NCBI GenBank assembly: GCA_031835245.2
Contig: JAVKOQ020000005.1
Coordinates: 62,001-126,000 of the forward strand
DNA from: Balamuthia mandrillaris
Taxonomy: Eukaryota
Direction: 5' to 3'
DNA length: 64,000 nucleotides
The notes beneath the pieces are model-generated. The model saw only the letters and a program-made list of their open reading frames with translations, was not told where the DNA came from and ran no database searches. Each line of letters starts with the position of its first letter. Within the stretch, counting starts at the first letter, position 1. Shown here piece after piece: positions 28,267 to 36,023 of this stretch. The translations under genes and the position numbers were made by a program.

Positions 28267-28989
28267 ATGAAGAGAGTAATGACCTTGCTGGTTGTGTTGG
28301 CAGCCTTTGCTGCTGTGGCACTCTGCGACAAAGCTGCGGTCGACGCCTCTACCACCACAACGAGATACTACGACGGTGGAGACATCTACGATGGCAAGTA
28401 CGATGGAGGCAACATCTACGATGGCAAGTACGACGGAGGCAATATCTACGATGGCAAGTACGATGGAGGTGACATCTATGATGGCAAATACGGCGGTGGC
28501 AACGTCTTCGATGGTAGGTACGATGGCAACATCTTCGATGGCAAGTATGATGGTGGTGATATCTACGATGGTCGCTATGATGGTGGCGACGTCTACGATG
28601 GCAACTATGATGGTGGTGACGTCTACGACGGCAACTATGATGGTGGCGACGTCTACGACGGCCACGACATTGATTACTATGATGACTATGAAGATGACAA
28701 TGTGAACTACGGAGCTGGTTGGTGCCCTGGTGACATTGATTACGATGGTAACGACGGTTACGATGGCAACGATGGTGGCAACGTCGGCGATGGCCACGAC
28801 GGTCATGATGGTAACGATGGCGGTAACGTCGGTGACGGTCACGATGGTCATGACGGTAACGATGGCGGTAACGTCGGTGACGGAGACGGCAAGAGTGATG
28901 ACAAGAGCAGCCAGGGATCCGACAGCAGCAACGATGGTGGCAGCAAGGACCACAGCGCTGCCCGCTCTTTGCGTCCCTTTGTCTTCTAA
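28267..28989 (+). CDS. Secreted Gly/Asp/Tyr-rich tandem-repeat protein (240 aa)
   Basis: Signal peptide MKRVMTLLVVLAAFAAVALC; about ten YDGG[DN][IV]YDG[KRN] units then GHDGHDGNDGGNVGD units; synonymous variation between units indicates coding constraint. Confidence 0.88.
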   Translation: MKRVMTLLVVLAAFAAVALCDKAAVDASTTTTRYYDGGDIYDGKYDGGNIYDGKYDGGNIYDGKYDGGDIYDGKYGGGNVFDGRYDGNIFDGKYDGGDIYDGRYDGGDVYDGNYDGGDVYDGNYDGGDVYDGHDIDYYDDYEDDNVNYGAGWCPGDIDYDGNDGYDGNDGGNVGDGHDGHDGNDGGNVGDGHDGHDGNDGGNVGDGDGKSDDKSSQGSDSSNDGGSKDHSAARSLRPFVF

Positions 28990-29047: not shown

Positions 29048-31175
29048 CTAAAATAAAAAAAATATAGTTTCTTCGCTATCACTATCGCTATCGCTATCGC
29101 TGTCTTCGCTATCACTGTCACTAGAATAAAATTCCTCTTCGTCTTCGTCTTCGTCTTCATCATCTTCTTCAAACCGTCTGCGGGGTTCCTGCTGGGGTTC
29201 ATCCCAAGGGCATCCGTTGTCACGTGCCCACTTTAAAATGTCCTTATGTCCGTTGCGTGAGGCCCAGTTACACGTGCTCTCGTCCCAAGGGCATCCATTC
29301 GTATGTGCCCACTGCAGGATCCTCAAGTGTCCTCCTTGTGCTGCAGCGCTACATGTTCGTTCATCCCAAGGACAGCCATTGGCCCTCAGCCATTGCAACA
29401 CTTCCAGTTTGTCTCCTTTTGCAGCAGCCGCACAGGCCGTGGCATCCCAAGGACATCCATTGGCTCTGGCCCATGTTAATATCTCGATGCAGGCCTTTCG
29501 TTCGAATTCGTCCTCCTCTTCATCATCCGCCAACGCAGTGGCGGCTCCTGTACAGGTTCGCTCATCCCAAGGACAGCCGTTCTCTCGAAGCCATCGAAGT
29601 ACTTCAAAACGTTTGGACTCTGCTGCAGCACAGGCCCGTTCGTCCCAAGGACATCCTTTCTCTCGAGCCCATTTCAACATCTCAAAGTTCTCTCGAGCTG
29701 CGGCTGCACATACTTCCTCGTTCCAAGGACATCCACGCTCCCAAAGCCACTTCAACAGTTCAGGTCGCGCCTCAGCAGCAGCAGTAAGGCATGTGCTCGC
29801 GTCCCAAGGACAACCCTGTTCGTGAAGCCATTGGAGCAGCTCCTTATTGCCATGGGCCACTGCCTCATTGCAAGTCTCCACAGTCAAAGGACAGCCCTGC
29901 TCATATGCCCATTTCAAGATCTCAAAGTGACCTCCGTCTGCTGCTTTGCTGCAAACCTTGTCGTCCCAAGGGCAACCATTGTCGTGTGCCCATTTCAAAA
30001 TCTCCAAATGTCCATATTTAGCCGCTTTGCGGCAAGTGGCCTCGTCCCAAGGTAAACCAAGCTCTCGAGCCCACTTGAGAAATTCAAAGTGGCCGCCCTT
30101 CGCTGCAGCGCTGCAGCTTGAAGCATCTACCGGGCAGCCGTGCTCGTATGCCCACTGAAAGGTGGCCATTTGCCCTGCCTGTGCTGCATAGCGCAAGGTG
30201 TCCTCATCCCAAGGGCAATCGTGCGCTCGAGCCCACTTTAGAACGTCCAGGTGTCCTGACATAGCGGCCATTACACATGTTGTCTCGTCCCAGGGGCAAT
30301 AGTTTTTATGAAGCCACTTAAGAACCTTCAACTGGCCAGCTCCTGCCGCATGTGCAGCAGTCATCGTGCTCCAAGGGCAGCCCCACAGTCGAATCCATTT
30401 TAGGGCCTCCAAGTGCCCGTTTTTCGCCGCAGCGATGGTGGTATTCGTATGCCACGGACAAGAACAATAGTAGGCTTTCTTGAGCACGTGCAAATGGCCG
30501 TTTGCCGCTGCAGCATCACATGTCTACCAAAGCAGAAAATGCAAGAGAGAGAGAATGTAAGTGACATGAAGAAGAGCAGGCTGAAGAAAAGAAAGAGAAA
30601 GAGAAACGACGAAAGAGAAAGAGAACGAGAAACGACGAAAGAGAAAGAGAAAAGTGAACAAATGAGAGGAGCATACCTTTTCATCCCAAGGACAGCCATT
30701 CTCTCGCGCCCACATCAACACTTCCAAGTTGCCTTGTCTGGCCGCCTCCTCACATGTACGGACGCTCATCGGATGTCCGTTCTGCACAGCCCATTGTAAC
30801 ATCTTCAGGCTGCTGCACACCGCCTCCTCAAGCAGTACGCGCCGAAGTACGGGATTGCTGCAAGCATACCAACGACGGCAGGTCCTGGCGGCCACAGCTA
30901 CCATGTGACGAGGCAGCAGGTTAATTATGTGACACAATAGTTCGTCTGGGATCTGATCTTGCAGCCAGCTACCACCTTCTCCCTATATTGGACAAGAAAG
31001 CGTAAGCTGCGGGGATCTAGGAATGGAACACAACCCCTTCCTGAGATGCAAAAAGACGAACCGTGTGCGGTGCTTCGTGATTTCCAAGCGGGTCTACCTT
31101 TTCATTCTCTGCGTTTTCCGTATGCAGTGTCTCTTGCTCTTGGTCAATCCTTCGGCGTTTTTGTGGTTTGCTCAT
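29048..31175 (-). CDS. F-box + 'GCPWD' ankyrin-like repeat protein with acidic tail, intron-containing
   Basis: MSKPQKRRRID exon; F-box-like IPDELLCHIINLLP..AARTCRRW; more than 15 repeats of C..AA..GHLEILKWAxxNGCPWD. Confidence 0.85.
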
Positions 31176-31486: not shown

Positions 31487-32427
31487 ATGTCGGACAGAGA
31501 AAGTTTTGTGGACCCAGACGAAGTGGACGTGGAAGGTGAGGAGGAGTTCGAAAGCAGAGGGAGCAGAGGGCGGCTGAGATCAGAGATTTCTGTTTCTGGC
31601 AGCGGTAGCGGAGGAGGCGTCAAGGGAAGAGGAGCCTCTGGTGGTCATGGAGGCATGGAGGAACGCTACGCCGGAAAGTCTGGAGTGTTTGAGCGACTGT
31701 CCCGTGATGGCTCTTCTTCCGCTGCCTCTGCTTCTTCTTCTTCCTTTTCCTCCTCCTCCTCTTCTGTCTCTCACCACGAAAAGGGCGCTTCTGTTCCTCA
31801 ACAATGTATTGTACCACTCTTTTTTGCTTCAATCGTGTTCTATTTTTTTTTTGGGCTTATCACTTTTTTTACTCTGGAAACCCAAAAAATGTAGCGGTGG
31901 AAGGTTGGATTGTCATTGCAGCAAATGTACAGGAGGAAGCTCAGGAGGATCAGATACACGACGCGTTTGCCGACTAGTACGTTCCCTTTTTTTTCTTGTT
32001 TTCTCTTTCTTTTCTTCGTCTCTCTGTCCTCTTTCTTTCCAACTCATTTATAGATCCATTTCTTTCTTCTCTTTGTCTCTTTTTCTCTTCTCTCTTCTTT
32101 CTTCGTAAAGTTATGCTTAACACAACAAACCCAATCCAAAAAAACAAAAAACAAAAAACACTTGGCAGTGGAGTGATCAAGAACATTCAACTTCCATTGG
32201 ACAGAAGAACAGGCTTCGTCAAGGGCTACGCCTTGGTGGAGTACGAAACAAAGAGGGAGGCGGAGACGGCCATCGAGAAGATGAACCAAGCAGAGTTTAT
32301 GGGCAAGACATTAACCGTGGACTGGGCCTTCCTGGCCAAGCCTGGCTCCTCCTCTTCGTCTTCATCATCATCTTCTTCTTCTCGAAGCAAAGGACGCGTG
32401 GGAGGAGCAGGCGGAAGGAGAAGATAA
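31487..32427 (+). CDS. RBM8A: RNA-binding protein 8A (Y14), exon junction complex
   Basis: KGRG motif, [58 protein letters not shown]; two introns. Confidence 0.95.
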
Positions 32428-32628
32428 GTCTTTTGGAGGGAAAGAAAGTAATATGTCGACAGTTGTCTACAAAAAGTATAACCTGTTTTTATGACGACAT
32501 TAGATTTAAATATTTGTCGACATTTGTCTGCAAATAATCGCTCCTACAGGAATAATACGAAGGCGACGCAAAGATCATAAGATCTAAGGACAACAAAAAA
32601 GAAATCCCGACGACATTCGTCTTTTGGG

Positions 32629-32654
32629 CCAATGAGCATTTTTCCCGCCAAAAC
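32629..32654 (+). promoter_or_regulatory. CCAAT box plus E2F-type site (TTTCCCGCCAAAA) upstream of the Fanzor gene
   Basis: CCAAT 32629-32633; TTTCCCGCC 32641-32649 fits the E2F consensus TTTSSCGC; about 70-90 bp before the ATG at 32722. Confidence 0.5.
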
Positions 32655-32721
32655 AACCCTTCCTTCTCCCACGTCTTCGAAGGCAAAGTGGTGGGTTGGG
32701 GTGTGGGGTGGGGTGAATGGA

Positions 32722-34843
32722 ATGGATGCTCATGCTGCTGCCGCCAATAAACTTTTGGTACTCGTCATTCGCCTTGACACTTTTCTGCTACTCGTTTTCT
32801 TTTCTTCTCTTCTCTTCTTTTCTTGTCGTTTCTTTCTTTTCAAAAGTAAACACACAGACACACACATCCACGAAGCTCCACGCACCACCGTATTTCTCAT
32901 TGCTACGCTTCTACTACACAAGGAGGAAACCAGCGGCGGAAGGAGGCAGAGGTGGAAACCGAAGCGGTTCAGCAGCAGGCAGGGGCACCGCTCCGATTGA
33001 AAAGGTAGCGTTCTTTTTTCTCTGCTCGCTCACTACATTTTTTGATGATGGAAAAAAAATTTGTTACCAACCACTCACTAATGATTTCTTTTGTTTAAAA
33101 AAGAACAGCATCACGAACCTCTGTGCGCCTCTTCCACAACGCTGCTGGAAGCTGGCCTGAATGGCAAGTTTGCTACCTCTCACGGGTTGGCCGTTCACTT
33201 CGGTCGGGTCCACAAGGAAGGGGGTCGCGCCACTACTTCTTCTACTCCCACTGCTACTCGGAAAAGAAGAGCGGAAAACGCCCCAGCGGCACCTCAGGCA
33301 AGGGCACAGAAGCGTGGAAGGCCGCAGGCTGCACCCGCCCAGCCCTTTTGGAACCAGTTTTCCAGCGAAATCGGGAGAAGATTAATACGCCCAGAAGCCT
33401 TGTGCTTGGAAGAACCCTTTGCCTGTGGTTCAGGATGGTTCACCGCCTGCAAGCACATTCCTAACGGAGAAAAGGTGTTGGAGGAGGAGGAGGAGGAGGA
33501 GAAGAAGGAGAAGGAGAAGGAGAAGGAAGAAGAGGAGAAAAACCAGAAAGGCTTGTTAGGCCTCATCGAGGGACTCGTTCCGTCTCGCCCAGCCGTACAG
33601 CTCACCAAAAAAGGCAAGAATGGAGAGGAGAAACCGGTAGTGGGGCGATTGGAGAAGATCCGCCTTTATCCGCGCTCGGAACAAAAGAAGACGCTGGCCA
33701 AGTGGTTCGGCACAGTACGATGGACCTACAACAAGGCCGTGGAGTTTCATCGTGAACATAAAGGAATGCCTCTTAAGAAGATGAAGGAACAAGTCAGGGA
33801 GAAATTCCTGAATAACGGCAATTTCAACGGAGAGGACAAGAGCCTTGCGTGGGTGTTGGAAACTCCTCGATACATTCGCAGTGACGCCGTCGATGATTTC
33901 TTCAACGGCGTGAAAACCAGCTTGGCGGCGGGCAGGACTGGATTCAAGATGAAGTTCCGTGGTCGGAAGGACAAGAGCCAGTCTCTCAGCATCCAAGCCA
34001 GGGAGTGGAACCACAGCAAGTCCATCCGCCAACTCCTCTTCGGGGAGGCGCGAATCAAAGCGAGGGACAAGAACTACAAAGTTCCGTCGGAGGTGCTCTA
34101 TGCCGTTCGTCTGGTGAAAGACACTCGACTGGGCCATTACTACCTCTGTGTGCCTCAGCCTTTGAAGCTCATGGGCGAGAGCCAAGCCCGTGAGCACCGA
34201 AGGAGAGAGGCAGGCATCATCGCCTTGGATCCAGGAGTGCGCACATTCATGACCACCTACAACGGCTGCGGGGAGGTCACCGAGTGGGGCAAAGCGGACA
34301 TCAACGAGATAGGCAAGCTGTGCCACCGCCTGGACCGCATGCAGAGTAAGGGCACCAAGGGCAACCACAGGCAACGGCGCCGTCTCCGAAGGGCCGCTGC
34401 TCGGCTTCGCCAGAGGATCCGCAACCTGGTGGATGACCTCCACAAGAAGCTCGTGTCTTGGTTGGTCAGGAACTTCTCCCTCATCCTTCTGCCAGAGTTC
34501 AGGAGCCAGCAGATGGTGCGGCGAGGCCACCGACGCATTGGCTCACGAACGGCCAGAGCCATGCTCACCTGGTCCCACTATCGCTTCAGGCAGAGGCTCC
34601 TCAACAAGGCCAAGCAATGTCCGTCCTGTACGGTCTGCCTCTGCGATGAGGAATACACCTCCAAGACCTGCGGCAAGTGCGGCCAAGTCCACCACCAGTT
34701 GGGGGGAAACAAGACCTTTCGGTGCCCAACCCGAGTGTGGCTACCAGGCCGATCGAGATGCCAACGCCGCCCGAAACATCTTGATCCGCTTTTTTACGTT
34801 ACAAGCACTTACCACCTCCTCCTCCTCTGTGAGGGGGCGGTAG
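32722..34843 (+). CDS. Fanzor2 (eukaryotic TnpB-like RNA-guided endonuclease); exons 32722-32757, 32858-33004, 33109-34843; frameshift near 34723-34738
   Basis: PFWN..EI..RL N-terminal motif, KIRLYP..QKKTL..WFG..RWTYN (OrfB HTH), IIALDPGVRTF (RuvC-I D, 34228), ILLP + DEEYTSKTC (rearranged RuvC-II), CGKCG...CP Zn ribbon, and in the shifted frame ECGYQADRDANAARNI (RuvC-III D, 34757). Both 5' introns are GT-AG and phase 0. Confidence 0.92.
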
Positions 34844-34917
34844 GCGGTAAGGTTGCTTTGGTGCCGGCACCGTTGCTTATAGCGAGTCGTATGACAAGCC
34901 GTGATTAGGCACGCCGG
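34808..34917 (+). ncRNA. Candidate Fanzor omega-RNA scaffold (guide predicted to start at 34918)
   Basis: Long hairpin 34808-34851 over the stop codon; GGTG-CCGG-CACC hairpin 34860-34871; three small hairpins 34874-34910; terminal GCCGG 34913-34917 complementary to the CCGG loop (pseudoknot). Folded by eye. Confidence 0.62.
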
Positions 34918-35177
34918 AGGTGGGTTATTTCTTGTTTCTCTGTTTTTTTTTCCCCCGTCAACTAATTTTGCTTTATTTTCGTTGTCCATTGATCGGCTTG
35001 ATCTTGGCACCATCTTAGGAGTTAAAAGGTTTAAATTCCTATTCTTATTGGAGGTGAACCACTGCTGGCTGTGTTTTGTGTGTACATAGCTGAGTGCAAG
35101 CGATCATATAACAAAAGTAATAACAATGAATTGTAATCACAAGAAAGAAGAAAGAAAGAACAAGCGCTGAAAGGTTT

Positions 35178-36023
35178 TCAATCAGACATAACCTGTCGAG
35201 TGATCCACTGAGGCCATTCGGTGATAGGAATCTGTTCTTCCAACACCCGGGAGTATAGACGATGAACGTCCACGTTCTTGAACCGACCTTCTTGTACCGC
35301 ATTCATCTTTGCAAATATAGCCACACTCACAAAATACCTGTTGGCCATTCAGTTATTCGTTTTTTTTTAAGTTGTTAGTGAATCGGATCCGTGACGACTT
35401 ACACTTGAGAGAAAGTGAAGTAAAAAAAGAGTAAGTAAACGTACTTTTCAGACAGGTCTGTAAGAGCGCTTTCGGTGGAGCGTAGCTTCTGTCTCGTCTC
35501 TCTCAACACTTTGTCTTTCAGGTTAAGCTCATTCTCCAAACAATGAACGCGTTCCTCCAAGTGTTTCTGTGCTGGTGTATTTGTTGCTTCCACCATAACT
35601 CCACTGTTGGACTTCACTTTACGAAACGGCAGTCTCGTTGCGTTTCCACTGTGCAGAAACTTTTGCAGCTGTCTCTGAGAGAGTTGAACTTGTTCCTCCT
35701 CCTCTTCTTCTTCCATCGACAGTGTTAAGTCACTGTTGCTGCTTGTGGCCTCTCTATCGAACAAGTCGGAAGGAGGAGGTTTTACAGAGTAGGGAGAAGT
35801 GGAGGAGGGAGAAACCTCTCCTTCCTCCTCGTTTTTGGAAGGCATTACGAGAGAGAGCATAGGAGAGGTGACGTTCCGTGGAGAGAAGCTGCCGCTGAGG
35901 TCCTCTGTTGAGCTTTGGTGGTCGATATTGAGAGACGAGCTGCTCAACTTCAAAAAAACAGAGGAAGGCACGAAAGAGTTAACTCAGACATACAAGAAAC
36001 AATAACAAAAGACGAGAAAAAAG

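Follow-up and report, generated by a model that had tools for sequence, protein, structure and literature searches.

How did TnpB and Fanzor nucleases enter transposon families with DNA ends that are incompatible with the guide scaffold? According to published work, the RNA absorbed these ends, and the pseudoknot was lost in Fanzor1. We analysed a stretch of 64,000 nucleotides from Balamuthia mandrillaris (the window, whose coordinates are used throughout), in which a segment of 99 nucleotides that looks like a spliceosomal intron lies between a predicted Fanzor2 omegaRNA scaffold and the flank. The first-pass annotation had read this segment as a possible splicing-controlled switch that holds the guide RNA inactive until it is removed. 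The explanation we lean towards is that splicing removes the terminal inverted repeat (TIR) and creates the guide RNA, with the scaffold joined to the flank; its function is predicted. If true, removal of the end by splicing would solve this conflict in another way, and one open to eukaryotes only.

The element and its guide scaffold

The Fanzor2 gene is located at 33161-34843 (plus strand; start and stop taken from the annotated copies P0002, P0140 and P0141) and is broken in the window copy. It contains the Pfam domains HTH_OrfB_IS605, OrfB_IS605 and Cas12f1-like_TNB, its best PDB match is the mimivirus Fanzor2 (9b0l, E 9e-19), and the nearest database proteins, with 80-90% identity, are Balamuthia mandrillaris "transposases". 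A TnpB-like HTH, RuvC and a zinc ribbon are present and are closest to those of IS607-type TnpB/Fanzor2; the catalytic E is found six residues ahead of the zinc finger (DEEYTSKTC in the translation). The gene thus has the sequence hallmarks of Fanzor2, and RNA-guided DNA cleavage is predicted for its product. Compared to reads and other copies, the window copy carries a 22 nt deletion near 33165 and a 2 nt deletion near 34726, resulting in two frameshifts, the second of which is common to at least one other annotated copy (P0144). Being frameshifted, it would at most provide RNA to a protein made elsewhere. Many of the annotated copies are shortened or frameshifted; an intact C-terminal frame is kept in P0140 and P0143. 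In the region of 33161-33230, other copies (P0002, P0141) start with a CxxC...HxxxxH zinc-finger-like motif, the CxxC part of which is lost here.

The gene lies in a multi-copy transposon that extends from 32561 to 35015 and includes the segment 34920-35018. At least 12 annotated protein copies, named Balamuthia mandrillaris transposases, are found on different contigs; a second copy of the element is absent from the 64-kb window. The left TIR (32561-32604, plus strand) is marked by loose read ends and varied flanks before 32560/32562. RNA reads show varied flanks upstream of 32560, and the two bases preceding the left end are TA in four of the five listed flank groups of other copies, AA in one and GA in the window copy. 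On the right side, the summed depth of DNA contigs is far above that of the flank until approximately 35018 and then drops to 18.6 in run X2 and to about 10 in run X9 (contig depths are not copy numbers). A contig of the RNA set X13 likewise matches through 35018 and continues into a different flank. An alignment of the left end with the reverse complement of 34972-35016 has 32 identical columns out of 46, and one of 20000 random 45-mers scored as well. Together, the varied left flanks, the depth drop and this match define an element with imperfect TIRs of about 44 nt (right TIR: 34972-35015, minus strand) that is flanked by TA, as in mariner/IS630-type elements, which are TA specific. TA is found at both right ends and is followed by G at both known right flanks; in the window, this likely target-site duplication and the G form the TAG at 35016-35018. 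The architecture is solid: 34920-35018 forms the right end of a TIR transposon that is present in multiple copies and carries a Fanzor2 gene.

A right end near 35018 had been offered earlier as a fallback and is supported by the multi-copy depth up to this position and by the different flank in X13. The same depth rules out that the segment is unique flanking DNA, and a left end without a donor rules out that the whole element is an intron. TIRs and a target-site duplication are the features of the Fanzor2* type of TIR transposon. IS607EU elements have no TIRs, end at the scaffold end and carry a serine recombinase gene; the TIRs found here set this element apart from them. No transposase was detected in the element, and the two upstream open reading frames that were scanned had no Pfam match. 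The TIR is no copy of the scaffold, since the only stretch they share is a 7 nt match. An automatic TIR search over the related loci gave no convincing terminal repeat; this search is insensitive and missed the window's own TIR as well. RNA data also contain joints of internal deletions, 33961-34227 (about nine reads, X21-X23) and 33639-34468 (one X13 contig). They likely derive from non-autonomous copies, and P0140 has a similar internal loss.

The core of the omegaRNA scaffold is predicted at 34803-34919 (plus strand) from folds and from the alignment of its hairpin with relatives, and its start may lie further 5′. It consists of a long stem (34803-34858), the pseudoknot hairpin, two small hairpins, the pseudoknot strand and AG. 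The hairpin with the loop CCGGC (34864-34868) aligns to the pseudoknot hairpin of relatives. The loop is a perfect 5 bp complement of GCCGG at 34913-34917, with letters on both sides changed in comparison to relatives, and the AG that follows is CG in most close relatives. Altogether, 159 related loci were compared. In 12 of 13 families with right ends defined by copies, the loop-complementary 5-mer ends 1-3 nt before the element end; three of the BLAST ends behind this count were trimmed by hand by 2-3 nt, and the count comes without a chance control. Among 26 aligned scaffolds the pseudoknot helix is the sole consensus structure and covaries, which is partly circular, since the relatives were chosen partly by that pairing. 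The covariance model matched the window only at 34761-34846 (E 6e-5) and stops short of 34919; therefore, the scaffold end rests on the hand-assigned pseudoknot. This strand and the end rule of the relatives uphold the end at 34919 that had been proposed before. Viral contigs contained no match to the scaffold end.

The comparison shows that IS607-type relatives stop 1-3 nt past the pseudoknot strand, with the flank directly as the predicted guide. In ApmFz2 (PDB 9B0L) the pseudoknot immediately precedes the guide, according to the available text of PMC11832414, and in IS607 TnpB the pseudoknot is needed for activity. Taken together, these observations place the predicted ancestral guide start at 34920, which is now 99 nt away from the flank. 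With the ancestral end at 34919 and the TIR beyond it, the TIR separates the scaffold from a guide derived from the flank. The guide had been proposed to consist of AG plus flank: its origin from the flank holds, whereas the AG belongs to the scaffold by ApmFz2 numbering, which would put the first guide base at 35019 or 35020. The flank at 35019-35039 (plus strand) has single-copy depth in X2 and X9 and is, by analogy to the relatives and ApmFz2, the predicted guide after splicing. Neither candidate guide (14 nt, up to two mismatches) has targets in the window other than the guide sites themselves.

The segment between scaffold and flank

The segment at 34920-35018 (plus strand) is likely a spliceosomal intron. 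It contains the donor GTGGGT, a variable pyrimidine tract, the branch site ACTAAT (34961-34966), the TIR and the acceptor TAG. The motifs reported in the first-pass annotation, AG/GTGGGT at 34918-34925, ACTAAT and CTTAG/G at 35014-35019, are all present, as is the length of 99 nt. With a GT donor, a branch site, use of the first downstream AG and a host-like size, the segment has the sequence characteristics of a U2 spliceosomal intron. No AG is found between donor and acceptor, and this is likewise the case in 13.6% of 20000 base shuffles. RNA reveals two nearby host introns of 89 and 107 nt, and a third, deduced from contig pieces, has 192 nt. The donor is unlike those of the three host introns (GTATTG, GTACGT, GTACGT), and the distance from branch site to AG is 53 nt, compared to 37 and 27 nt in the two host introns with a clear branch motif.

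The splice signals are placed at the borders of the older parts. The donor lies exactly at the old element end, where the CG of relatives has become AG/GT; the branch site is located just upstream of the TIR, and the TA duplication with the next G provides the first AG downstream of the branch site. Copies differ freely in the middle of the segment but not at donor and branch site: of the 40 substitutions listed, 17 are located in 34931-34957 and none in 34920-34930 or past 34957. Five X2 contigs regain the match at 34961, and a divergent X9 copy retains ACTAAT. X13 and X2 also include contigs with a variant 3 nt duplication at the donor (34920-34923), which results in two tandem GT sites.

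The evidence for splicing is thin but exact. Five RNA reads from other copies of the element break exactly at 34919, three into foreign sequence (X21) and two to an internal site (X22); they come from two runs of one study, with raw RNA runs sampled at 3-5% of each. The X21 coverage falls from 11 reads at 34892 to two at 34931 and one at 34952, part of which may be due to strain divergence. Beyond 34919, the three X21 reads continue for a median of 99 letters in foreign sequence, which does not start with GT. Its first 14 letters have no match in the window, and the consensus agreement of 0.81 among the reads hints at more than one locus. The two X22 reads jump from 34919 to approximately 34985, which is at the usual distance from the branch site, and the landing site follows TTG instead of AG in the window copy. 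A cryptic site, an AG at this position in another copy or a deletion might each explain it.

An exon-exon junction was thus seen from its donor side in five reads of other copies and in none of the window copy. No reads joining 34919 to 35019 are listed in six runs, and RNA coverage of the window copy's flank is near zero. The earlier intron claim is supported by the motifs, the host-like size and the few reads that break at the donor; its junction was not seen. Among the joints listed for the DNA runs X2 and X9 none starts at 34919, with loose ends listed in part; in X9 the segment is still covered at a depth of 170, compared to 232 in the scaffold (about three quarters). RNA of X13 retains the segment, with a depth of 279-404 compared to 440 in the scaffold (single positions), though a host intron is removed in it. 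Since X13 also has a dominant intron of minus-strand type within the element (33033-33118), part of this signal may be antisense.

The same layout is found in a second Fanzor2 family. In L012 the pseudoknot strand is followed by AG/GTTAGT, TACTAAT and TAG, with a segment of 94 nt, and the match of a model built without this locus stops precisely at the AG. L160 (92% protein identity) retains AG/GTTAGT and loses similarity after about 45 nt of the segment, and L004 has the downstream segment in common with one base fewer at the donor. Since L012 and L004 share the segment and L160 keeps the donor, the post-scaffold segment is encoded by the element in this family. Among 64 assigned scaffold ends (63 relatives and the window; the remaining loci are incomplete or ambiguous at the end) only the window and L012 combine AG/GT, branch site and acceptor. 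In trees, the L012 family groups with pseudoknot-ended elements (SH-aLRT 97-99), away from the window. These quick trees favour an independent origin of the two arrangements, and a single origin is not rejected by the AU test (p 0.338). Splicing in the L012 family is predicted from sequence. Viral contigs contained no close relative of L004. The L160 contig is AT-rich and eukaryotic-looking, yet was binned with a bacterial genome. Its post-scaffold segment gives way after about 45 nt (L160:1090-1180) to repeat-rich sequence that begins behind a TA and may be a further inserted element.

Competing explanations and the proposed guide RNA

In the explanation that we prefer, the spliceosome would skip the whole TIR, from the donor at 34919/34920 to the terminal AG, and splicing would restore the ancestral junction of scaffold and guide. 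The spliced RNA would be used as omegaRNA, with a guide that begins directly behind the removed segment. In analogy to TnpB/Fanzor biology, the guide of each copy would target its own empty site, and cutting would restore excised copies by homing-type repair. The element would be moved by a transposase encoded elsewhere, and the TIR could serve it free of the demands that a place in the RNA scaffold would impose. One observation counts against a spliced guide: the right junction rebuilds TAG plus guide target, and since 3 nt TAMs have been reported for Fanzor2, a TAM of this length could let the element cut itself. The four left flanks of the TA type have no common upstream motif. More tentatively, Fanzor2 elements may have handed guide RNA assembly to the host spliceosome more than once, in an amoeba and in an AT-rich soil eukaryote, with an intron that hides the DNA end and splicing that fuses scaffold to guide and gates the nuclease.

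The intron might also be real and simply be a 3′ UTR intron of a decaying element, with a dead guide RNA and splice sites placed by history or chance. The two frameshifts of the window copy, the many shortened or shifted annotated copies, the self-targeting problem and the retention of the segment in X13 would fit such decay. We consider it unlikely, because the perfect pseudoknot has changed on both sides compared to relatives, both splice sites are located exactly where guide geometry requires them, the donor has the same position in the second family, and P0140 and P0143 keep their C-terminal frame.

Two further explanations make use of base pairing between TIR and scaffold. The complementarity described earlier is present: CGGCTTG (34994-35000) can pair with CAAGCCG (34895-34901), and TTGGCACCA (35004-35012) with TGGTGCCGG (34859-34867), in nested order. 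Both "anti-scaffold" strands are sequence inside the right TIR. Of 2000 dinucleotide shuffles, 2.2% contain both helices (0.3% for the TIR part), and 18.5% and 26.9% contain the one or the other; with thresholds set after the fact, the joint occurrence is modestly above chance. The duplexes reach −13.7 and −10.1 kcal/mol, compared to −8.3 kcal/mol for the pseudoknot. The pair probability of the helices is 0.82-0.87 for RNAs starting at 34790-34855 and about 0.01 for starts at 34740-34760; in folding, 30-50 nt of extra 5′ sequence thus abolish them. Freeing the pseudoknot strands costs an extra 0, 2.5 and 0.8 kcal/mol in unspliced compared to spliced RNA for three starts. Variants in X9 and X13 weaken both helices, with four instead of two G-U pairs and the loss of one pair in the 7 bp helix. 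Their TIRs are nearer to the left TIR than the right TIR of the window copy is, and the stronger pairing in the window copy is due to changes that make its right TIR less similar to the left one. L012 has no counterpart of this pairing.

If there is no functional splicing, TIR and TA would be part of a longer scaffold with the nested helices as stems, and the guide would follow 35018. This resembles Fanzor1 and Fanzor2*, in which TIR and target-site duplication are predicted in the scaffold in the accessible part of Yoon et al. (PMC10711439), and it agrees with the high pair probability in the shorter RNAs and with the segment being kept in X13. In contrast, the 9 bp helix would disrupt the pseudoknot hairpin, which is needed in IS607 TnpB and adjacent to the guide in ApmFz2. 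The breaks of the X21 and X22 reads at 34919, the free variation within the segment and the weaker helices in other copies also speak against it. A longer scaffold is therefore rather improbable.

We give the same low weight to the idea that splicing occurs and that selection favoured TIR strands which pair with the scaffold and thereby hold unspliced RNA inactive, for example to bar the intron start, which is present in every copy, from serving as a self-directed guide. The rarity of the nested pair in shuffles and duplexes stronger than the pseudoknot speak for selection. The extra cost of at most 2.5 kcal/mol, the loss of the helices with longer 5′ sequence, the weaker pairing in other copies and its absence from L012 speak against it. 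From the switch proposed in the first-pass annotation, the complementarity thus remains, and inhibition of the unspliced RNA finds little backing; a weak safety lock is possible. Finally, the reads breaking at 34919 might stem from DNA copies with the ancestral IS607-type end, where relatives indeed end and for which DNA loose ends are listed in part, with a segment that is intron-like by composition only, but this is very improbable, given the X9 depth that continues into the segment, the recurrence of donor, branch site and AG in L012 and the X22 reads that rejoin within the segment.

Fanzor2 in IS607-type elements, as far as described in the available text on ApmFz2 (PMC11832414), shares with the window the nuclease family, an omegaRNA overlapping the 3′ end of the gene and a pseudoknot before the guide; there, the element ends at the scaffold end, whereas here the TIR and an intron-like segment intervene. 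Fanzor2* and Fanzor1 cut-and-paste transposons (PMC10711439; PMC13565253, accessible parts) likewise have Fanzor between TIRs and a short target-site duplication. In those, TIR and duplication are predicted or shown to belong to the scaffold, whereas here splicing likely removes them and leaves the ancestral pseudoknot end in place. In IStrons, IS607 or IS605 elements with a group I intron (10.1101/2023.11.20.567912, accessible part), splicing also meets the guide RNA at the right end. There, the whole element splices itself out, which cuts the scaffold off from the guide and is antagonistic; here a short spliceosomal intron would join them, in a cooperative way. The proposed IStron analogy thus likely points in the wrong direction, and an Rfam search of 32400-35600 found no group I intron spanning the element and no credible match at all (none better than E 3.1).

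Introners are transposons that create spliceosomal introns, and their splice site appears to draw on the target-site duplication, as it would here. In this element, the difference is that only the right end is an intron and that the donor is located inside a non-coding RNA.

Jiang et al. (PMC10530073) describe intron gain in Fanzor genes and, in the text available, not in the guide RNA. The supplement of Yoon et al. contains no match for Balamuthia or for intron, and the literature searched, with subscription papers largely outside it, contains no report of a spliced Fanzor guide RNA or of this element. If our explanation is true, this would be the first natural guide RNA assembled by the spliceosome found in that literature. 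Guide prediction from element boundaries would then give the wrong scaffold at such loci, and guides turned on by cell-specific splicing would be suggested.

Further transcripts and neighbouring genes

Two X22 reads contain the last scaffold letters (34906-34917) and then jump back to 33592, beside CAG. An X13 contig starts at 33592 too, and the back-jump is no clean splice from 34920; circular RNA or template switching might account for it. The joint at 33033-33118 (minus strand), of the type CT..AC, is present in all four RNA sets, with nine raw reads and an X13 contig at depth 376, and points to a spliced antisense transcript from the 5′ region of the element. The two plus-strand open reading frames scanned around it matched no protein family.

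The element is flanked by an RRM gene and a PH-domain gene. Upstream of the element, an ankyrin-repeat protein with CPWD repeats is encoded at 29048-30364 (minus strand), a type common in amoebae and their giant viruses. The reading frame at 28267-28989 (plus strand) has a signal-peptide-like start, followed by YDGG/DGND tandem repeats.
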